DNA from: Candidatus Micrarchaeota archaeon
GTDB lineage: Archaea > Micrarchaeota > Micrarchaeia > Anstonellales > Bilamarchaeaceae
Length of the DNA: 17,500 bases
Direction of reading: 5' to 3'
Assembly (NCBI GenBank): GCA_043816005.1
Contig: JBDRIM010000008.1
Coordinates: 1 to 17,500 of the forward strand
In this document: piece by piece, positions 630 through 17,384 of the stretch
How the letters are laid out: each line of letters opens with the position of its first letter
Numbering within the stretch: position 1 is the first letter of the stretch
Translations under genes and position numbers: made by a program
Notes under the pieces: model-generated
What the model saw: only the letters and a program-made list of their open reading frames with translations
Database searches by the model: none
Told to the model about the DNA's origin: nothing

Positions 630-705
630 CGTGACAAAATACAAACTATTTTTTGTCATGTAATTAGATGATATGACAGGAAGAGCTGATCTGAGTTCCT
701 CAGGG

Positions 706-762
706 CATGCTATTGTCGCTTGCGACAATGGCAGTCAAGAACGTTGCGACGTTCTTGCCATG
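706..762. repeat. Double-hairpin dispersed element, copy 1
   Basis: CA-TGCTATTGTCGC-TT-GCGACAATGGCA-GT-CAAGAACGT-TGCG-ACGTTCTTG-CCATG. Same architecture and same AGTCAAGAAC...GTTCTTGCCATG core as 12233-12283. Confidence 0.75.
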
Positions 763-848
763 ATTTGAGATCTAATCTGAGAACCTAAAAGGTTAGCATC
801 CTCAGACCAGATCTAATTGCAGGGGAAGGGATTTTCGTATTTAACAAC

Positions 849-878
849 TTTTTGCCGAGCTTTTTGGTAAAAAGCGAG
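849..878 (+). repeat. tRNA-associated T5-N3-A5 hairpin element (in Leu 59/60 intron, antisense to the tRNA)
   Basis: TTTTTGCCGAGCTTTTT-GGT-AAAAAGCGAG; 21/30 identical to the leader copy, preceded by TTTAACAAC. Confidence 0.65.
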
Positions 879-934
879 TTCGAACCCTCGAAGGCACTAA
901 GCCACTGAACTTTTCATCGAGCTTTAACAAGCCC

Positions 935-965
935 GTTTTTTGGTTCTTTTTTACTAAAAAAGAAC
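935..965 (+). repeat. tRNA-associated hairpin element (in Leu 37/38 intron, antisense to the tRNA)
   Basis: GTTTTTTG-GTTCTTTTTT-ACT-AAAAAAGAAC; perfect 10-bp stem, preceded by TTTAACAA. Confidence 0.6.
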
Positions 966-1004
966 AACCTGAATCCAGCACGTTTGACCGCTTCGCTACC
1001 CCTG

Positions 1005-1037
1005 CAAACTTTTTGAAAAAAAGTTTGACAAAAACTC
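1005..1037 (-). repeat. tRNA-associated hairpin element (5' leader of tRNA-Leu)
   Basis: Minus strand GAGTTTTTGTCAAACTTTTTTTCAAAAAGTTTG, ending on G1 of the tRNA; 30/33 identical to 7180-7212. Confidence 0.8.
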
Positions 1038-1048
1038 TGGTTGTTAGA

Positions 1049-1057
1049 TTATAAAAA
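1049..1057 (-). promoter_or_regulatory. Putative TATA box for tRNA-Leu
   Basis: TTTTTATAA on the minus strand about 45 nt upstream of tRNA position 1. Confidence 0.45.
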
Positions 1058-1058
1058 A

Positions 1059-1364
1059 CTAAGCTAACGCTTCTTCTGCCAACACACATGCTCTTTCAAA
1101 ACGAGAAACACTAGTTCTTGTTCCTACTCGTACTGCTCTTGTTGCCCTTTCATGATCTAATTTATCTAATAGTTCGGATTTCTTTCCAAATAATTCATAC
1201 AAAAATGTTGATCCTTCACCATGAGTTGCAGATCTGAAACCATTCGGACCTTCAATCATAAGTTTTCCAGTTGTTGGAAAAAATTTGCATTTTAAGGTTT
1301 CTCCACCATGGTCAATAGAACCAGTTACAACGGTGATTCTATTTCTTTTCATTATTACATGCAT
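1059..1364 (-). CDS. Hypothetical protein (paralogue of 1374-1757); start may be ATG at 1352
   Basis: 101-aa ORF packed 9 nt behind the upstream ORF. Shares RxRI, GxLMxExP, RxATxxE and RxERx5E motifs with its neighbour. Confidence 0.65.
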   Translation of the reverse strand: MHVIMKRNRITVVTGSIDHGGETLKCKFFPTTGKLMIEGPNGFRSATHGEGSTFLYELFGKKSELLDKLDHERATRAVRVGTRTSVSRFERACVLAEEALA

Positions 1365-1373
1365 AAAAAAACC

Positions 1374-1757
1374 TTAAATTAAACTTTCAACCATTCCCAC
1401 AATTCTTTCTAATCTATCAAGTCTTAATCTTACACTAGGGTAAGTAGTTGCATTTGCTCTTCCCTCTGCTATCCTTGCATCCGTAAGTGTATCATCAACT
1501 TTACCAACAAATGCTCGTTTTTCAACAACAGTTGCTTCCCTTGCTTGAGTATGTGGAGGTTCAACCATAAGCACCCCATCTCCACGAGAAAAACCAAACC
1601 TAAATGGAGGCAATGTTCTATCCATCTTTATAGTTGTTGAAACACCAATTATTCTTCTTCTAATAACTGTATCACAAATTCTCTTATCTTTAGTTAAAAA
1701 AGTTAATCCATTCCCTAGCTCATTACCCATTCTACCATTGATTCTAGTTCTGTTCAT
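1374..1757 (-). CDS. Hypothetical protein (paralogue of 1059-1364)
   Basis: 127-aa ATG ORF with an upstream TTTAAAA TATA-like box; motifs shared with the downstream ORF. Confidence 0.7.
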   Translation of the reverse strand: MNRTRINGRMGNELGNGLTFLTKDKRICDTVIRRRIIGVSTTIKMDRTLPPFRFGFSRGDGVLMVEPPHTQAREATVVEKRAFVGKVDDTLTDARIAEGRANATTYPSVRLRLDRLERIVGMVESLI

Positions 1758-1810
1758 AATAATGGTAGTATATGAATACTCTTTTAAATATGCAATACCA
1801 CTCTTAAAAA

Positions 1811-2242
1811 TTAAGCATACTTTCCAACTGCTTTTCCTTCTAAAACCATTTTCTTATATTCTTCAGCTTTATCAGAATAAATTTTATCTATTCTTCTGAA
1901 ACGATTTGAATATTTTCTGTATGCTTTCAAAGCTGCAGCATAAGCATCTCGAATATGGATATCCATCGCATCTTTTGCCATAAATCTTTTAGATTCCTGA
2001 GTAAGATTTTTACTTGGAGAAAAAACTTTTATATTGAATTTTGCTGCAACGGATTTTACAAAAGAAGGTGGTTTTGCAACATCACAAGCAACAAGAAGTG
2101 GAATTCCAATTTGAGAGATAAGTCCAACAACGTTATTTGCATTTTTTTGTTTTGTTACCCCAGCACCAACTAATTTTCCATTTAGATCAAGTGCAGCATA
2201 ACCAACATTTATTCCTGGATCAATGCCAATGATTAGATACAT
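1811..2242 (-). CDS. DUF460-family protein (RNase H-like fold), short form
   Basis: N-terminus MYLIIGIDPGINVGYAALDLNG, VACDV..PP..V and H.RDAYAAA.KAY..Y match DUF460. Start moved to ATG 2242, just after the upstream stop at 2247. Confidence 0.8.
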   Translation of the reverse strand: MYLIIGIDPGINVGYAALDLNGKLVGAGVTKQKNANNVVGLISQIGIPLLVACDVAKPPSFVKSVAAKFNIKVFSPSKNLTQESKRFMAKDAMDIHIRDAYAAALKAYRKYSNRFRRIDKIYSDKAEEYKKMVLEGKAVGKYA

Positions 2243-2246
2243 AAAA

Positions 2247-3371
2247 TCAGCAGGTGCAATAACCACTAGCACCATAGCCACAGTTCACACACTTGTAACT
2301 TGAACATTTTTTACAACCAGAACATTGAGAACTTGAGGTACATTGAACACTGATACATTTACCATTCAAACATCTTTTCTTATACCCGCATCCGGCATTT
2401 GTTGTACACTCACTACCAGATGAAGGAGTTGAAGATGTGGTGCATTTACCATCAGAACAGGTTACTGGGCATGTATAGAATTCAAAATCAGAAGTACCAT
2501 CTGCTTTGCAATAGTATTCATAAAGTAGCTTTGTATTGCCACTAGAACAAAAATCTGAATCAACATTACTTCCAGAGGTAGTTGTTCCTTTAACTGCATA
2601 ATTAATTCCGCCATCAGAGTCTGTGCAAGTGAGAGAAGTTGGATCAGATGCAGAATTGCATTTTCCATTAGAACAACCATATGTACAAGGCTGGGAGAGT
2701 TCATACATATCATTACCAGAACAGAAATACTCTAGAATACTACTCCCATTACAAGTATCTGCCATTATCAATGTTCCTTTTGCAGCTATTCCCTTAACGT
2801 TAAGATCTTGTCCACCATCAGAGTCAGTACAAGCAGATGGATCAGATCCAGAATTACATTTACCATCAGAACAGCCATAGTTGCAAGTCTGTAGGATTTC
2901 GTATATTGCACTACCTTGACAAACATACTCCACAACGCTACTTTCTTCACAGATATCAGTTAGAGTAAATGTTCCATTTGTAGCTGTTCCCTTAACATTG
3001 AAATTAGATCCTCCATCAGAGTCAGTACAAGTAGACGAAGGCTGGGAGGGTGGAGTGGAGGAAACACAGTGTCCGTCAGAACAGCCATACATACAATATT
3101 GTGAAAGTTTGTATATATCATTACCAACACAGGAATATTCTAGGACATCGTCCCCACTACATACATCAGTTTGAGTTAGTGTTCCGTTTGTGGCTGTTCC
3201 TTTGACATTGTAATTAATTCCACCGTCAGAATCTGAGCAAGTAATAACTTGTTGTGGAACAGGCGGGGGGTCAGGTTGTGGAGGTACTGGATTCACTACG
3301 TTTTGCCAATCAGGTACGATACACCCAAAAAATAGAAATGTTATGAGGAAAATTATTGCGAACTTCATCAA
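2247..3371 (-). CDS. Secreted Cys-rich lipoprotein with four C-x-DSDGG repeats
   Basis: Signal peptide ending LFFGC, Pro-rich linker, four 6-Cys repeats (CxDSDGG..VKG...DxC...EYxC...CxxxCSxGxC) and a Cys-rich C-terminal tail. Confidence 0.85.
   Translation of the reverse strand: MMKFAIIFLITFLFFGCIVPDWQNVVNPVPPQPDPPPVPQQVITCSDSDGGINYNVKGTATNGTLTQTDVCSGDDVLEYSCVGNDIYKLSQYCMYGCSDGHCVSSTPPSQPSSTCTDSDGGSNFNVKGTATNGTFTLTDICEESSVVEYVCQGSAIYEILQTCNYGCSDGKCNSGSDPSACTDSDGGQDLNVKGIAAKGTLIMADTCNGSSILEYFCSGNDMYELSQPCTYGCSNGKCNSASDPTSLTCTDSDGGINYAVKGTTTSGSNVDSDFCSSGNTKLLYEYYCKADGTSDFEFYTCPVTCSDGKCTTSSTPSSGSECTTNAGCGYKKRCLNGKCISVQCTSSSQCSGCKKCSSYKCVNCGYGASGYCTC
2442..3239 (-). repeat. Four intragenic tandem repeats of about 200 bp
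   Basis: Recurrent plus-strand CCATCAGAGTC(A/T)GT(A/G)CAAG and GAACA(G/A)CCATA blocks, matching the protein repeats. Confidence 0.85.
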
Positions 3372-3404
3372 TTTATCTCTGCAAAAATATTAATAAAGGT
3401 GCCT

Positions 3405-4634
3405 TCATTCTTTTTTCTCTTTGGTCACAATAGTTTCCTGCTTTACAAAAATATGATTATTTGAATCAAGATTTTCTTTTACAACAACACCAGAACCAAT
3501 CCAGCAATTACTGCCAATTAATTTACCAGGCATAGTACAAGAAAGAATACCGAATTTAGTATTATCACCAACAAAAATACCTAACTTTTTCTTTCCGGAA
3601 TTTGTCCATCCTCTTTCAGTTATAACGTTGATGTGACCACCGTCAAACCTATAATTTGCAATCTGAGTTCCAGAGCCAAAATTAACATTTTCGCCGATTA
3701 CACTATCACCTATATATGCAAGGTGTTTCGCATTAACATTATCAAAAAGAATACTATTTTTTAGTGTGGTACCACCACCAATCGAACAGTTTTGACCGAT
3801 TGAATTAAAACCACGAAGATATGCATTTGGACCGATAATTGTATTTGCACCAACATAGGCACATCCTTCGATGTAGCTATTGATTATCTTTGCACCTTCT
3901 TCCATAATTACTCGCCCATCAATTGTTGAATTTTCAATATGGCCTGTTTTTACTTCCATTTTCGAGAGTAAAAATTCATTTGCATCCAAAAGATCCCATG
4001 GGAATGCAATGTCTTGCCAATAACCGTCAACAACAACTCCACGTGCACCAATAAACAAACTTACAAGTTCGTATTCACCACGTTCGGATTTAGCTACGGA
4101 TTTTAACTCGCTAAAAATAGTTGGTTCCATACAATAAACAGAAATGTTTGCTAAATTGCTTTTGGGGTGTTTTGGCTTTTCTTCAAAAAGACTTATTTTG
4201 TCTCCGGAAAGTTCTACAACCCCATACAAATGAGAATTTGAAACTTTCTTGAGACCAACTGTTATTCCGCCTTTGTGTGCATCTATTACTTTTTTTATTA
4301 CTGATGCTTCAGTTACAATATCACCTGCCAAAACAACAAAAGTATCACCTATTTCTTTTTGGACAGTGAGTAATGCTGCACCAGTACCCTTTTCTGGTCC
4401 CTGTTCAATAAATTTGATTTTCATTCCAAAATCAGTTTTAGATAAATATTCGATTATCTTCTCTTTTTTATAACGAACAACTATCACGACTTCGTTAATT
4501 CCGGCTTTTTTGGCTTCAGTAAGAAGATGGTAAATAAGTGGTTTGCCTGCTACATAAAGCATTGGTTTTGGTCGTGTTTCAGTAAGTGGCCTAAGCCTTG
4601 TGCCTTCGCCTGCTGCTAAGATAACTCCTTTCAT
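3405..4634 (-). CDS. glmU: Bifunctional sugar-1-phosphate nucleotidyltransferase/acetyltransferase (archaeal GlmU type)
   Basis: ILAAGEGTRLRPLT..RPKPM nucleotidyltransferase motif, EKP, SERGEYEL, W.DI..PWDLL, then hexapeptide repeats with HLAYIGDSVIG and ANYRFD. Confidence 0.88.
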   Translation of the reverse strand: MKGVILAAGEGTRLRPLTETRPKPMLYVAGKPLIYHLLTEAKKAGINEVVIVVRYKKEKIIEYLSKTDFGMKIKFIEQGPEKGTGAALLTVQKEIGDTFVVLAGDIVTEASVIKKVIDAHKGGITVGLKKVSNSHLYGVVELSGDKISLFEEKPKHPKSNLANISVYCMEPTIFSELKSVAKSERGEYELVSLFIGARGVVVDGYWQDIAFPWDLLDANEFLLSKMEVKTGHIENSTIDGRVIMEEGAKIINSYIEGCAYVGANTIIGPNAYLRGFNSIGQNCSIGGGTTLKNSILFDNVNAKHLAYIGDSVIGENVNFGSGTQIANYRFDGGHINVITERGWTNSGKKKLGIFVGDNTKFGILSCTMPGKLIGSNCWIGSGVVVKENLDSNNHIFVKQETIVTKEKKE

Positions 4635-7084: not shown

Positions 7085-7250
7085 GCCGCAGTAGCTCAGC
7101 TGGGAGAGCATTCGAATTTCTCTGAATGAAAATTCATAGAGATGATGAAGCTGAAGTGTTTTGGAAACCAATTACCACTGAGTTTTGGTCAAACTTTTTT
7201 CCAAAGAGTTTGAAACCGAAGGGTCGCTTGTTCAAATCAGGCCTGCGGCA
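7085..7250 (+). tRNA. tRNA-Phe(GAA) with two introns (30/31: 7115-7149, 35 nt; 37/38: 7157-7214, 58 nt)
   Basis: Spliced sequence GCCGCAG-TA-GCTCAGCTGGGAGAGC-A-TTCGG-CTGAAGA-CCGAA-GGGTC-GCTTG-TTCAAAT-CAGGC-CTGCGGC-A. Intron 1 has a full BHB (CATT/GATG, bulges CG|A and AA|G, outer helix ATTTCT/AGAGAT). Intron 2 helix CTGA/TTTG is imperfect. Confidence 0.9.
7180..7212 (+). repeat. tRNA-associated hairpin element (in Phe 37/38 intron, sense)
   Basis: GAGTTTTGGTCAAACTTTTTTCCAAAGAGTTTG; 30/33 identical to the reverse complement of 1005-1037. Confidence 0.8.
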
Positions 7251-7260
7251 TTTCTTTTTT
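7251..7260 (+). terminator. Oligo-T tract directly after tRNA-Phe
   Basis: TTTCTTTTTT immediately 3' of the discriminator base, as in archaeal T-tract terminators. Confidence 0.5.
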
Positions 7261-7322
7261 GCTAAAAATTTCGCTGGAGCGAAGTTTGTGAAATATCTCA
7301 CGAATTTGGTATTGTAGTTAAT

Positions 7323-16715: not shown

Positions 16716-17384
16716 TCAACAGATATTAGATATGGACAAGTAATCCATAACTTTCTGTTTTTTATATTCTAACTGAATAAATGGGAATACAAATTCCATA
16801 AAATTAGTCATATTTTTTTTAGAAAGATAAAAACAATGTCGGTATCCAGTACTTTGTATCTTTCTGCCTTCGATTGTAGGTTCGCAACTAAATTTTTCAA
16901 TTCTTGCAGAGCACTTCAAATGAAACGAAATTAGTTTGATTAGATTATCATCTGGTTTACCTACGGTTATTCTAATTTCACATTGGGGCCATTTCGGACG
17001 TTTTATTCTTATATCGCCATCTCCATCGATCAAACCAGCCAAGTAAGCACAAAATAAATGAGTATCAGAGCGAATGTGCTCGGGTATATTGCCTTTAATT
17101 ATACCGAGCTCGTCAAGAACTACAAGCATCGAATTTACAGATGTGCCTATAGAATATATTCCAGTACCATATGAATTGATTTCATCCTTACAGATAGTCA
17201 AACTTCTATTAAATTCGAGCTCGAAAATTTTTTGTATAAAATTAAGCATTGGTAATGATTTTTCACCCACCTGAAAACGAATTCTATAAATTATCCGATT
17301 TCTTTTTTTATAAAAAAAGTTATAGAATGTACCGTCTGAATTTAATGCACCTAGAAAATAAGCAAGCCTGGCATTTAACCTCAC
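16716..17384 (-). CDS. Free-standing double-motif LAGLIDADG homing endonuclease
   Basis: Motif 1 AYFLGALNSDGT and motif 2 AYLAGLIDGDGD; basic protein; GTG start after GGTGGGA; no intein splicing blocks. Confidence 0.88.
   Translation of the reverse strand: MRLNARLAYFLGALNSDGTFYNFFYKKRNRIIYRIRFQVGEKSLPMLNFIQKIFELEFNRSLTICKDEINSYGTGIYSIGTSVNSMLVVLDELGIIKGNIPEHIRSDTHLFCAYLAGLIDGDGDIRIKRPKWPQCEIRITVGKPDDNLIKLISFHLKCSARIEKFSCEPTIEGRKIQSTGYRHCFYLSKKNMTNFMEFVFPFIQLEYKKQKVMDYLSISNIC

Follow-up and report, generated by a model that had tools for sequence, protein, structure and literature searches.

Why should one short hairpin sequence recur inside the introns of tRNA genes, and directly before a tRNA 5' end, in a small archaeal genome? 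The question is raised by the DNA analyzed here, a window of 17,500 nt (the whole stretch, positions 1 to 17,500 of contig JBDRIM010000008.1 from Candidatus Micrarchaeota archaeon, assembly GCA_043816005.1). It holds two interrupted genes, tRNA-Leu(CAG) and tRNA-Phe(GAA), and copies of the sequence, which we call the arm, lie in introns of both genes and in the tRNA-Leu leader. An earlier note on this DNA had described the copies as a mini-hairpin element confined to the discarded parts of tRNA precursors. We followed the arm through the entire assembly (1.26 Mb in 85 contigs, 36.5% G+C, 86% completeness; genome label G000, with the window on contig C8) and through related genomes. Our results lead us to favor, with modest confidence, the interpretation that the arms are end modules of a modular family of protein-spliced introns of the bulge-helix-bulge (BHB) type, which would interrupt almost every tRNA gene of this tiny groundwater organism and of its relatives, and would proliferate and exchange their parts within the genus.

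Two interrupted tRNA genes and their arms

Neither tRNA gene of the window was detected by ARAGORN with default settings or by Rfam at the gathering score, and ARAGORN with introns allowed miscalled the Phe gene as tRNA-Arg. We give the gene models as folded by hand:

1005-818, minus strand: tRNA-Leu(CAG), with exons 1, 2 and 3 at 1005-968, 910-879 and 831-818 (cloverleaf by hand; exon coordinates from exon BLAST)
967-911, minus strand: Leu intron 1, 57 nt, position 37/38
878-832, minus strand: Leu intron 2, 47 nt, T-loop position 59/60
7085-7250, plus strand: tRNA-Phe(GAA), with exons at 7085-7114, 7150-7156 and 7215-7250 (cloverleaf by hand)
7115-7149, plus strand: Phe intron 1, 35 nt, after position 30
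7157-7214, plus strand: Phe intron 2, 58 nt, at position 37/38

Removal of the introns by hand gives normal cloverleaves of tRNA-Leu(CAG) and tRNA-Phe(GAA), and the models agree with intron-free orthologs, namely locus L010 in genome G004 for Leu and locus L096 (72 nt, in genome G049) for Phe. Over the whole genome ARAGORN with introns allowed reported 14 tRNA genes, some of them false, and Rfam reported 12 above its cut-off; hence most tRNA genes of this organism are too disrupted for standard tools.

Arms were searched genome-wide with a regular expression and then with an nhmmer profile built from 41 copies (E<0.1). In the window, the arms and the elements beside them are as follows:

1005-1046, minus strand: leader arm of tRNA-Leu, sense orientation, with TAACAA at 1046-1041, GAGTTTTTG at 1037-1029 and the hairpin CAAA-CTTTTTTT-C-AAAAAG-TTTG at 1027-1005
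1049-1058, minus strand: TATA-box-like TTTTTTATAA just upstream of the leader arm, a putative promoter element
942-966 (plus-strand reading): antisense arm of Leu intron 1, hairpin GTTC-TTTTTT-AGT-AAAAAA-GAAC, 2-3 nt past the 5' splice site; after it come CAAAAAAC, TTGTTA and, at the 3' end, TGAA+AA
856-878 (plus-strand reading): antisense arm of Leu intron 2, hairpin core GCTTTTT-ACC-AAAAAGC (profile E 0.058); after it come CAAAAAG, TTGTTA and CGAA+AA
7168-7212, plus strand: sense arm of Phe intron 2 (profile E 2.8e-5), made of TTACCAC, GAGTTTTGG and the hairpin CAAA-CTTTTT-TCC-AAAGAG-TTTG, and ending 2 nt before the 3' splice site
7251-7295, plus strand: tRNA-Phe trailer TTTCTTTTTTGCTAAAAATTTCGC-TGGA-GCGAAGTTTG, a recurrent terminator-like hairpin module distinct from the arm hairpin

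The similarity that had first drawn attention to these sequences holds when read directly: the 33-mers at 1037-1005 (minus) and 7180-7212 (plus) share 30 of 33 bases, with three mismatches. The copies in the Leu introns do lie antisense to the tRNA, and TAACAA or TTACCAC stands ahead of the copies as the earlier note had it. What it took for a degenerate copy behind tRNA-Phe (7254-7268) is not an arm hairpin, being instead part of the separate trailer module TTTCTTTTTTGCTAAAAATTTCGC-loop-GCGAA. The final base of the leader-arm hairpin is G1 of tRNA-Leu (position 1005), and this arm is 97% identical over 32 nt to an arm in a T-loop intron on another contig (C64:40800-40831).

Anatomy, placement and orientation of the arms

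The profile found 56 non-overlapping arms at 36 loci of the genome. Each arm consists of a GTTTTTGG mini-hairpin followed by a main hairpin of the form N4-CTTTTT-N3-AAAAAG-N4', for which the consensus, read with GTTTTTG on the 5' side, is N4-CTTTT(T)-N1-4-(A)AAAAG-N4'. The loop of the mini-hairpin is (A/C)GTTTT(T), which is the GTTTTTGG motif, and its stems of 3-4 bp are compensated (e.g., GCC/GGC, CCCC/GGGG, GTCC/GGAC, ACC/GGT). The distal end optionally bears a small GC hairpin (loop GAAA or TTCG) with TTTT after it, or instead AAAAATTAGCAA, and (C/T)AACA(G/A) lies between this distal part and the mini-hairpin. In the leader copies, a TATA-like box stands at the place where intronic arms have AAAAATTAGCAA. 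The two orientations read differently as RNA: a 5'-side arm runs from the exon over 1-3 nt and the hairpin into CCAAAAAC, and a 3'-side arm, its reverse complement, runs from GUUUUUGG through the hairpin and 0-6 nt into the exon. The trailer module seen behind tRNA-Phe follows at least six tRNA genes, including genes on contigs C61, C64, C78 and C85 (two on the last), and it resembles the distal part of the arm, which is similar to the usual tRNA trailer hairpin, TTGCTAA(A/T)n plus a GC stem.

In a genome with this base composition (36.5% G+C), arms could be products of chance poly-T/poly-A runs or generic terminators spread evenly over intergenic DNA. Such a reading would find some comfort in the occurrence of the bare core CTTTT-N-AAAAG in coding DNA as well (e.g., at window positions 4176 and 17302), and in TTGCTAA plus an A/T run being no commoner than its reversed control (111 versus 91). 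The full pattern GTTTTN{5,10}CTTTTN{3,9}AAAAG, however, matched the genome 43 times against 3 times for the reversed control. Moreover, among 44 copies picked by the flank motif and the T/A core alone, with no filter for pairing, the N4 stem was fully paired in 31 and paired in at least three of four positions in 41, with 26 different N4 sequences, whereas shuffling the partners in 1000 trials gave a mean of 3.3 and a maximum of 10 fully paired copies. The stems are therefore compensated, as the earlier note had read them. Placement is equally far from even: an Rfam tRNA match (E<=10) stands no more than 300 nt away from 21 of the 56 arms, a 26-fold enrichment over random placement (mean 0.81, maximum 5 in 2000 trials). 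Arms concentrate in or beside tRNA genes and not at transcript 3' ends generally, the usual tRNA trailer being a different module, and the same sequences recur at orthologous introns in 18 of 18 congeneric genomes. The control, the placement and the stem tests thus rule out the chance reading, whose probability we consider negligible.

The location of all 56 arms was judged by eye from their 60-nt flanks, together with the Rfam result:

Antisense arm with its hairpin after a recognizable 5' exon end (D-loop, anticodon loop or T-loop): 21 arms
Sense arm with its hairpin before a recognizable 3' exon start: 18 arms
Sense arm just ahead of a tRNA 5' end (Leu-CAG, Leu-TAA, a Leu-like gene on C41, a gene on C24, and His): 5 arms
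Antisense arm directly after the tRNA-His 3' end: 1 arm
Arm within a long tRNA intron: 3 arms
Antisense arm at the 3' end of the archaeal RNase P RNA (59.7 bits, E 9e-15): 1 arm
Arm in non-coding DNA whose neighbors were not recognized: 7 arms

The proposal that the element occurs only at tRNA genes was therefore nearly right; one arm abuts the RNase P RNA and seven have unrecognized neighbors, and confinement to the discarded parts of stable-RNA precursors is supported. In all 46 arms that adjoin a boundary of a mature RNA, the hairpin end points toward that boundary. Orientation is strictly set by the side of the intron, arms being antisense in 21 of 21 cases at 5' splice sites and sense in 18 of 18 at 3' splice sites; hence the two orientations represent the two ends of an intron that is an imperfect palindrome, and not random insertion either way. 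It follows that the occurrence of both orientations does not, as had been argued, speak against an origin by RNA reverse splicing, although the RNA route is not thereby proven. One arm of each kind is present in 10 introns (e.g., the D-loop and Pro-CGG introns on C41 and the T-loop intron on C24), and in the C41 D-loop intron RNAfold pairs the two arms into one long stem. About 21 of the 39 splice-site arms are alone in their intron (13 at 5' sites, 8 at 3' sites), and two arms within one intron are mostly unlike in N4 and loop.

The arms outside introns bring in another reading, namely that the arm is a recognition site, in RNA or DNA, for a conserved protein by which stable-RNA domains are marked at their ends for processing, and that it is kept by selection rather than by copying; a splicing cofactor, an end-maturation factor or an Sm-like protein acting on AGUUUUUGG would be candidate readers. 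Arms abut tRNA-His at both ends, tRNA-Leu(CAG), tRNA-Leu(TAA), the Leu-like gene on C41, the tRNA on C24 and the RNase P RNA, and BLAST finds a leader arm joined to the tRNA-Leu 5' exon in at least nine other genomes of the genus. The main core and GTTTTTGG are conserved across families of the class while N4 and the rest of the intron vary. The two orientations, however, give unlike RNAs (loop CCU versus AGG, U5 versus A5 tail), so that a single RNA-binding protein would not recognize both. Many tRNA genes and introns are entirely armless, as the intron-free orthologs are, the T/A core has decayed in loci L089, L093, L097 and L098 although the hairpin is kept there, and we identified no candidate protein. 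We regard a recognition signal as quite improbable.

Several arm loci have further peculiarities. The RNase P RNA (C61:10378-10736, locus L061:479-837) scores 59.7 bits against an Rfam gathering score of 84; the arm there is decayed, begins one base past the 3' end of the RNA, and has no counterpart upstream. At C60:1-260, two copies of a 54-nt sequence starting TCCCCGGGGCGTTTTTGTTCACTGACC lie about 204 nt apart and enclose an arm, and CCCCGGGGCG occurs three times. At C85:10190-10340, CGAGAGG as 5' strand and CCTCTCG as 3' strand flank a T-arm-like sequence and also enclose an arm, in whose hairpin two inserted hairpins separate the 3' strand from the core; the locus is perhaps a tRNA fragment or a gene that has been heavily disrupted. 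The small structured non-coding stretches C80:2270-2330 and C80:9560-9620 both start with AAGAGTGGGAGGCGA (the putative small RNAs there start with AGAGTGGGAGGCGA) and gave no Rfam match at E<=1; an arm lies behind one and in front of the other. Locus L105 (G175:C3:16280-16600) has a sense arm behind a complete tRNA 3' end and, behind the arm, a second copy of the T-arm/acceptor 3' fragment, a piece of the 3' exon. The tRNA at C64:40702-40860 has the anticodon loop CTTATA, a 37/38 intron and an arm-bearing T-loop intron, and is possibly a tRNA-Ile(UAU).

Fit to the splice motif and the splicing endonuclease

In a BHB motif, a 4-nt helix strand and two bulge bases make up the last six bases of the exon, the third base of the bulge is the first of the intron, and the complement of the helix strand (4 nt) stands at the 3' end of the intron, with two bases after it. 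We checked seven introns with a 5'-side arm by hand, and the central helix was paired in all four positions in each of them, with the hairpin 1-3 nt past the splice site. The helices, exon strand first, are:

Leu intron 1: TTCA/TGAA
Leu intron 2: TTCG/CGAA
C6 T-loop intron: GTTC/GAAC
C24 T-loop intron: GTTC/GAAC
L037: GGTC/GACC
L003: TTCA/TGAA
L018: TTCA/TGAA

Given the perfect central helices and the short distance from the splice site, the hairpin occupies the place of the intron-side outer helix. The smallest introns have the hairpin set directly between the bulge base and the 4-nt complement, as in a textbook mini BHB intron. Such are Phe intron 1 of the window, a minimal canonical BHB intron in which a single bulge base and a single hairpin precede GATG (the complement of CATT in the exon) and AA, the same 30/31 intron in loci L088, L097 and L099, where the hairpin carries the CTTTTT..AAAAAG core, and a 27-nt D-loop intron of genome G031. 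From their sequences, the larger introns look like this mini-BHB scaffold with extra hairpin modules added, which stand behind the hairpin in 5'-side arms, in front of it in 3'-side arms, or within the hairpin loop (L085).

The genome also encodes a suitable enzyme. An EndA protein of 391 aa on C64, with one N-terminal and two catalytic-type domains, matches PDB entry 4fz2 over its full length (E 1.9e-133, residues 4-391) and is predicted to be an epsilon2-type splicing endonuclease. The epsilon2 enzyme is described in the cited text as cutting both BHB and relaxed bulge-helix-loop (BHL) substrates (PMC12397907). A second EndA-like catalytic domain is present at C5:14421-14663 in a 333-aa open frame.

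We propose the following mechanism. The arm hairpin would supply the intron-side helix beside the 3-nt bulge at the splice site, while a 4-nt stretch near the 3' end of the intron would pair with the exon to form the central helix; the broad-specificity epsilon2-type endonuclease would then cut, and a ligase would join the exons. A two-armed intron, itself an imperfect palindrome, could fold into a rod, and single-armed introns would keep one of its ends; the leader and trailer copies are the same arms placed just outside the mature ends.

Several approaches to the splice sites were abandoned. An automated rebuild of the tRNA genes from BHB-compatible introns with ARAGORN gave many contradictory solutions per locus and was discarded in favor of classing by eye; a strict BHB filter left several candidates per arm and overlooked T-loop introns that have no outer exon helix. 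Metagenome contigs from four groundwater runs that skip Leu intron 1 and both Phe introns were not used as evidence, because the sides of the joints are short (21-29 nt), the likeness is 85% and the contigs probably come from related organisms. No consistent register was found by hand for a leader-trailer BHB in tRNA-His or in leader copies generally.

Transcription through the arms poses a separate problem. Every arm has at least two runs of T5 or longer (T5-T7) on either strand, and runs of this length are expected to hinder archaeal RNA polymerase. The supposed introns might then be gene boundaries, the 5'-side arm acting as a terminator cassette and the 3'-side arm as a promoter-plus-leader cassette, with the tRNA pieces transcribed separately and joined in trans. 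A precedent would be the split tRNAs of Nanoarchaeum equitans, in which the leader and trailer of the halves are reverse complements that build a helix beside the BHB; here, too, the sequences that flank tRNA pieces are mutually reverse-complementary. The likeness of the distal arm part (TTGCTAATTTTT plus GC hairpin) to the module behind tRNA genes, and the TATA-like box of the leader copies, would suit such cassettes. Unlike in N. equitans, however, the pieces invariably adjoin one another, in order and on a single strand, the arms are common to all tRNAs and most introns are one-armed. Single-armed introns (e.g., Leu introns 1 and 2) have no promoter-like sequence before the downstream exon. 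We also tried N4 as an "address" that would match the two arms of one intron, and rejected it, since the stems match in just two of five two-armed introns examined, leaving no pairing address for joining in trans. We consider separately transcribed pieces very unlikely.

Variation among relatives and the origin of the introns

If the arms belong to an intron family, as we favor, related genomes should tell how it has spread. The arm pattern was found in all 18 same-genus genomes of a first sample (4-50 matches versus 0-9 for the control), while in most other families of the order the counts do not exceed background. A stricter pattern occurs in 39 of 151 genomes of the class (controls 0-2 matches), with few copies outside the genus (9, 5, 4, 4 and 4 in the best genomes). 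Of 18 copies fetched from outside the genus or from other species, at least 10 lie, judged by eye, in tRNA genes; among those from outside the genus are 5'-side arms at 37/38, in the T-loop and in the D-loop, and an arm in a tRNA trailer. Since the arms are present class-wide at low copy number, the module is old and was amplified in this genus, and the family is dynamic as well.

Orthologs of the two window genes bear on this dynamics. Eight orthologs of tRNA-Leu(CAG) were compared, and their introns are absent or lie at D-loop, D-arm, 37/38 or T-loop positions:

G004: intron-free
G012: sole intron in the T-loop, of a different kind
G043: one D-arm intron
G051: 37/38 intron with the same CCGC hairpin and CCCAAAAC as the G043 D-arm intron
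G038: 240-nt two-armed 37/38 intron and a mini D-loop intron
G033: 37/38 and T-loop introns
G031: the closest relative, 98% identical over exon 1, intron 1 and exon 2, with the 37/38 intron in common

The G031 gene differs from that of the window in having neither the T-loop intron nor the leader arm (the ortholog without this arm is locus L002) and in having an extra D-loop intron. Leu intron 2 is also missing from the orthologs in G038, G043 and G004. For tRNA-Phe, 27 orthologs were recovered from 30 loci: one is intron-free, 26 have the 37/38 intron, 14 the 30/31 intron and one a D-loop intron. The strict hairpin core is present in 12 of the 26 introns at 37/38 and a decayed core in about seven. 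By species, N4 of the Phe 37/38 arm is CAAA, GAAA, CCAC, GCGC or CCGC, while the flank motif and the core are constant. N4 sub-families of two to four strict copies each are spread over different tRNAs, and the N4 types at this site are sub-families present at other loci; hence replacement or gene conversion would be a simpler explanation than three independent double substitutions. The supposed link of the element to intron gain and loss is thus borne out insofar as orthologous tRNA-Leu and tRNA-Phe genes of the genus vary in the introns and arms they carry. Because introns shift position across species and arms at orthologous sites belong to different sub-families, we infer that parts are copied at the DNA level or converted between introns, in a manner that would be analogous to the "intron transposition" of Thermoproteales.

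The surroundings of the tRNA-Leu gene vary as well. The gene is directly followed by a long hairpin, AGATCTGGTCTGAGGATGCTAACC-TTTT-AGGTTCTCAGATTAGATCT (minus-strand trailer, window 737-817), which is 79% conserved in G031 and recognizable in other orthologs too; the perfect hairpins GTCAAGAACGTTGCGACGTTCTTGCC and GCTATTGTCGCTTGCGACAATGGC adjoin it (window 700-765), and hairpins of these types recur on C5 and within long introns elsewhere, e.g., CCCATTGTTC..GAACAATGGG. On the other side, a variable region (window ~1040-3404) begins exactly at the 5' end of tRNA-Leu and holds four open reading frames (ORFs) between this gene and a nucleotidyl-transferase gene, namely two unknown ones of 101 and 127 aa, a DUF460 fragment and an unknown one of 374 aa. 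The region is missing in G012, G004 and G038, where the tRNA adjoins the transferase gene, and partial in G031 and G043.

Could the arms rather be the terminal inverted repeats of a non-autonomous DNA transposon? Miniature inverted-repeat transposable elements (MITEs) and the introners of eukaryotes are short, non-coding, bounded by inverted repeats, present in many copies and, as introns, removed from transcripts. An archaeal analog would insert in or beside structured RNA genes and persist only where the transcript is spliced or trimmed. The 10 introns with two inverted arms around a variable center fit this picture, as do the recurrence of same-N4 sub-families at different tRNAs and positions, the presence/absence differences between near-identical orthologs, and the five leader and two trailer copies, which keep the hairpin-to-RNA orientation with no constraint from splicing. 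The hairpin loop and tail are, moreover, asymmetric, so that the two orientations would be equivalent only as double-stranded DNA or in an arm-arm duplex. A class-wide persistence at 1-9 copies per genome would, however, be unusual for an element with no conserved partner enzyme, and the two arms of one intron usually come from different sub-families.

Insertion sites and enzymes also count against a transposon. At the two readable filled/empty sites (the Leu T-loop intron and the G031 D-loop intron), no direct target duplication was found save the palindromic TTCGAA; both inserts instead hold an inverted copy of four exon bases situated two bases before the insertion point. A duplication in the form of a direct N4' copy beside the 3' complement was considered and rejected, as among about 10 introns examined only three showed it (L037, L003 and the C6 T-loop intron), and Leu introns 1 and 2, the Ile and Gly introns and the C85 T-loop intron had none. 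The earlier note had called for a hairpin-flanked mobilizer, and none was found. No transposase lies beside any arm, and the genome, at 86% completeness, has no match to PF01797, the Y1/HUH family, which together with RVT_1 made up the transposase-type families searched. A group-II-intron-like reverse transcriptase (C41:53160-54304; L070:1270-2414, minus), split over two overlapping ORFs of 171 and 224 aa and possibly frameshifted, reaches 114.7 bits where the curated cut-off is 300; the nearest arm is about 3 kb away. At window 16716-17384 (minus), a 222-aa ORF has weak LAGLIDADG/homing-endonuclease matches (E 1e-4 to 3e-3) and no adjoining arm. Micrarchaeota are reportedly mentioned in one paper on group I introns in archaea. 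No long ORF-bearing copy of the element was found: the one candidate for a full-length element, an ARAGORN "tRNA-Trp with 1352-nt intron" on C54, has neither tRNA-like ends nor an arm and is a false call. We therefore consider a MITE-like transposon unlikely. The same holds for the related idea that the arms are the ends of a DNA-level mobile unit creating protein-spliced introns, which is doubtful in our view; there, a palindromic, hairpin-ended insert beside structured RNA domains would build or select the inverted copy of four exon bases at its far end and so become a substrate for the endonuclease.

Similar distinctions apply to other palindromes. Repetitive extragenic palindromic (REP) sequences, mobilized by REP-associated tyrosine transposases (RAYTs), and IS200/IS605-derived palindromes are likewise short, compensated hairpin repeats in many copies, but they are generally intergenic and depend on Y1/HUH enzymes, whereas the arms cluster in stable-RNA genes of a genome in which, as far as assembled, we found no Y1 transposase. 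Introners differ in that the arms come with no target-site duplication or cognate transposase that we could find, and in that splicing is predicted to be of the protein-dependent BHB type and not spliceosomal.

A number of observations nevertheless weigh against a modular BHB intron family, the interpretation we favor. The 3'-side arms fit the motif poorly: the four bases expected to pair with the exon belong to the arm's own N4 stem, as its 3' strand, and match the exon in only two to three of four positions (three of four for Phe intron 2 of the window; 3, 3, 2, 3 and 2 of 4 in orthologs), so that the hairpin should compete with the splice motif and not help it. The outer exon helix is missing in some T-loop introns. 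Hence these motifs are of the relaxed type, those at 3'-side arms at best. Splicing, the splice sites and read-through of the T5-T7 runs are predicted from sequence, and the arm classes and most splice sites were assigned by eye. The class-wide conservation of the CTTTTT/AAAAAG core and of GTTTTTGG suggests a constraint beyond that on a generic helix; all seven leader and trailer copies face the mature RNA where splicing is not expected; seven arms have neighbors that were not recognized; and no donor-recipient pair, target duplication or DNA-copying enzyme was found. Given the conserved core, the facing of the leader and trailer copies, the T-runs and the likeness to trailers and TATA boxes, we keep the transposon, the protein signal and the separate gene pieces as rivals.

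Relation to known intron families and significance

The closest known parallel to a proliferating tRNA intron family is found in Thermoproteales, for which sequence-related families of tRNA introns and "large-scale intron transposition" have been reported (Fujishima et al., 2010, cited in PMC4090602; 10.64898/2026.10.13.758758). As described in these sources, close relatives there also vary in the introns they carry, and spread at the DNA level is suspected. The same kinds of relationship exist in our material: related arms occur in different tRNA types and positions of one genome, and the same CCGC arm is found in the D-arm of G043 and at 37/38 of G051. Compared by description, the present case differs in its host, a DPANN Micrarchaeota with a small, low-G+C genome, in that the shared part is a hairpin module at the intron ends and not the whole intron, in the inverted arms at both splice sites and the further copies in leaders, in trailers and after the RNase P RNA, and in the class-wide occurrence of the module. 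ARMAN-2 (Candidatus Micrarchaeum acidiphilum), of the same lineage, is similarly described as having multiple non-canonical tRNA introns and a three-unit EndA (PMC3239211, PMC12397907). The main text of PMC3239211 contains none of the terms hairpin, leader, conserved sequence or palindrom, and the arm module is thus not described in that text. Our literature search, whose reach did not extend to supplements or to Fujishima et al. (2010) itself, found no prior description of the module. The conserved end module, the inverted arms at both splice sites, the presence at mature ends of tRNAs and RNase P RNA and the conservation across the class appear to be undescribed.

According to the available text of a study on Asgard archaea, no tested route explains the gains of tRNA introns there, and Thermoproteales serve as the only positive control for copying between genes (10.64898/2026.10.13.758758). 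The genus studied here would provide a second, cleaner system. Should the reading as a mobile unit prove true, it would represent an archaeal counterpart of introners and the missing "route of arrival" for tRNA introns, and excised two-armed introns would be rod-shaped RNA circles. The arm profile is, in addition, a ready marker for tRNA genes overlooked by standard finders. Finally, the genus offers an end module defined by sequence, dozens of copies per genome, more than 40 sequenced species, orthologs ranging from intron-free to three introns, and near-identical genomes one intron apart; hence gains, donors and insertion boundaries should be directly readable.

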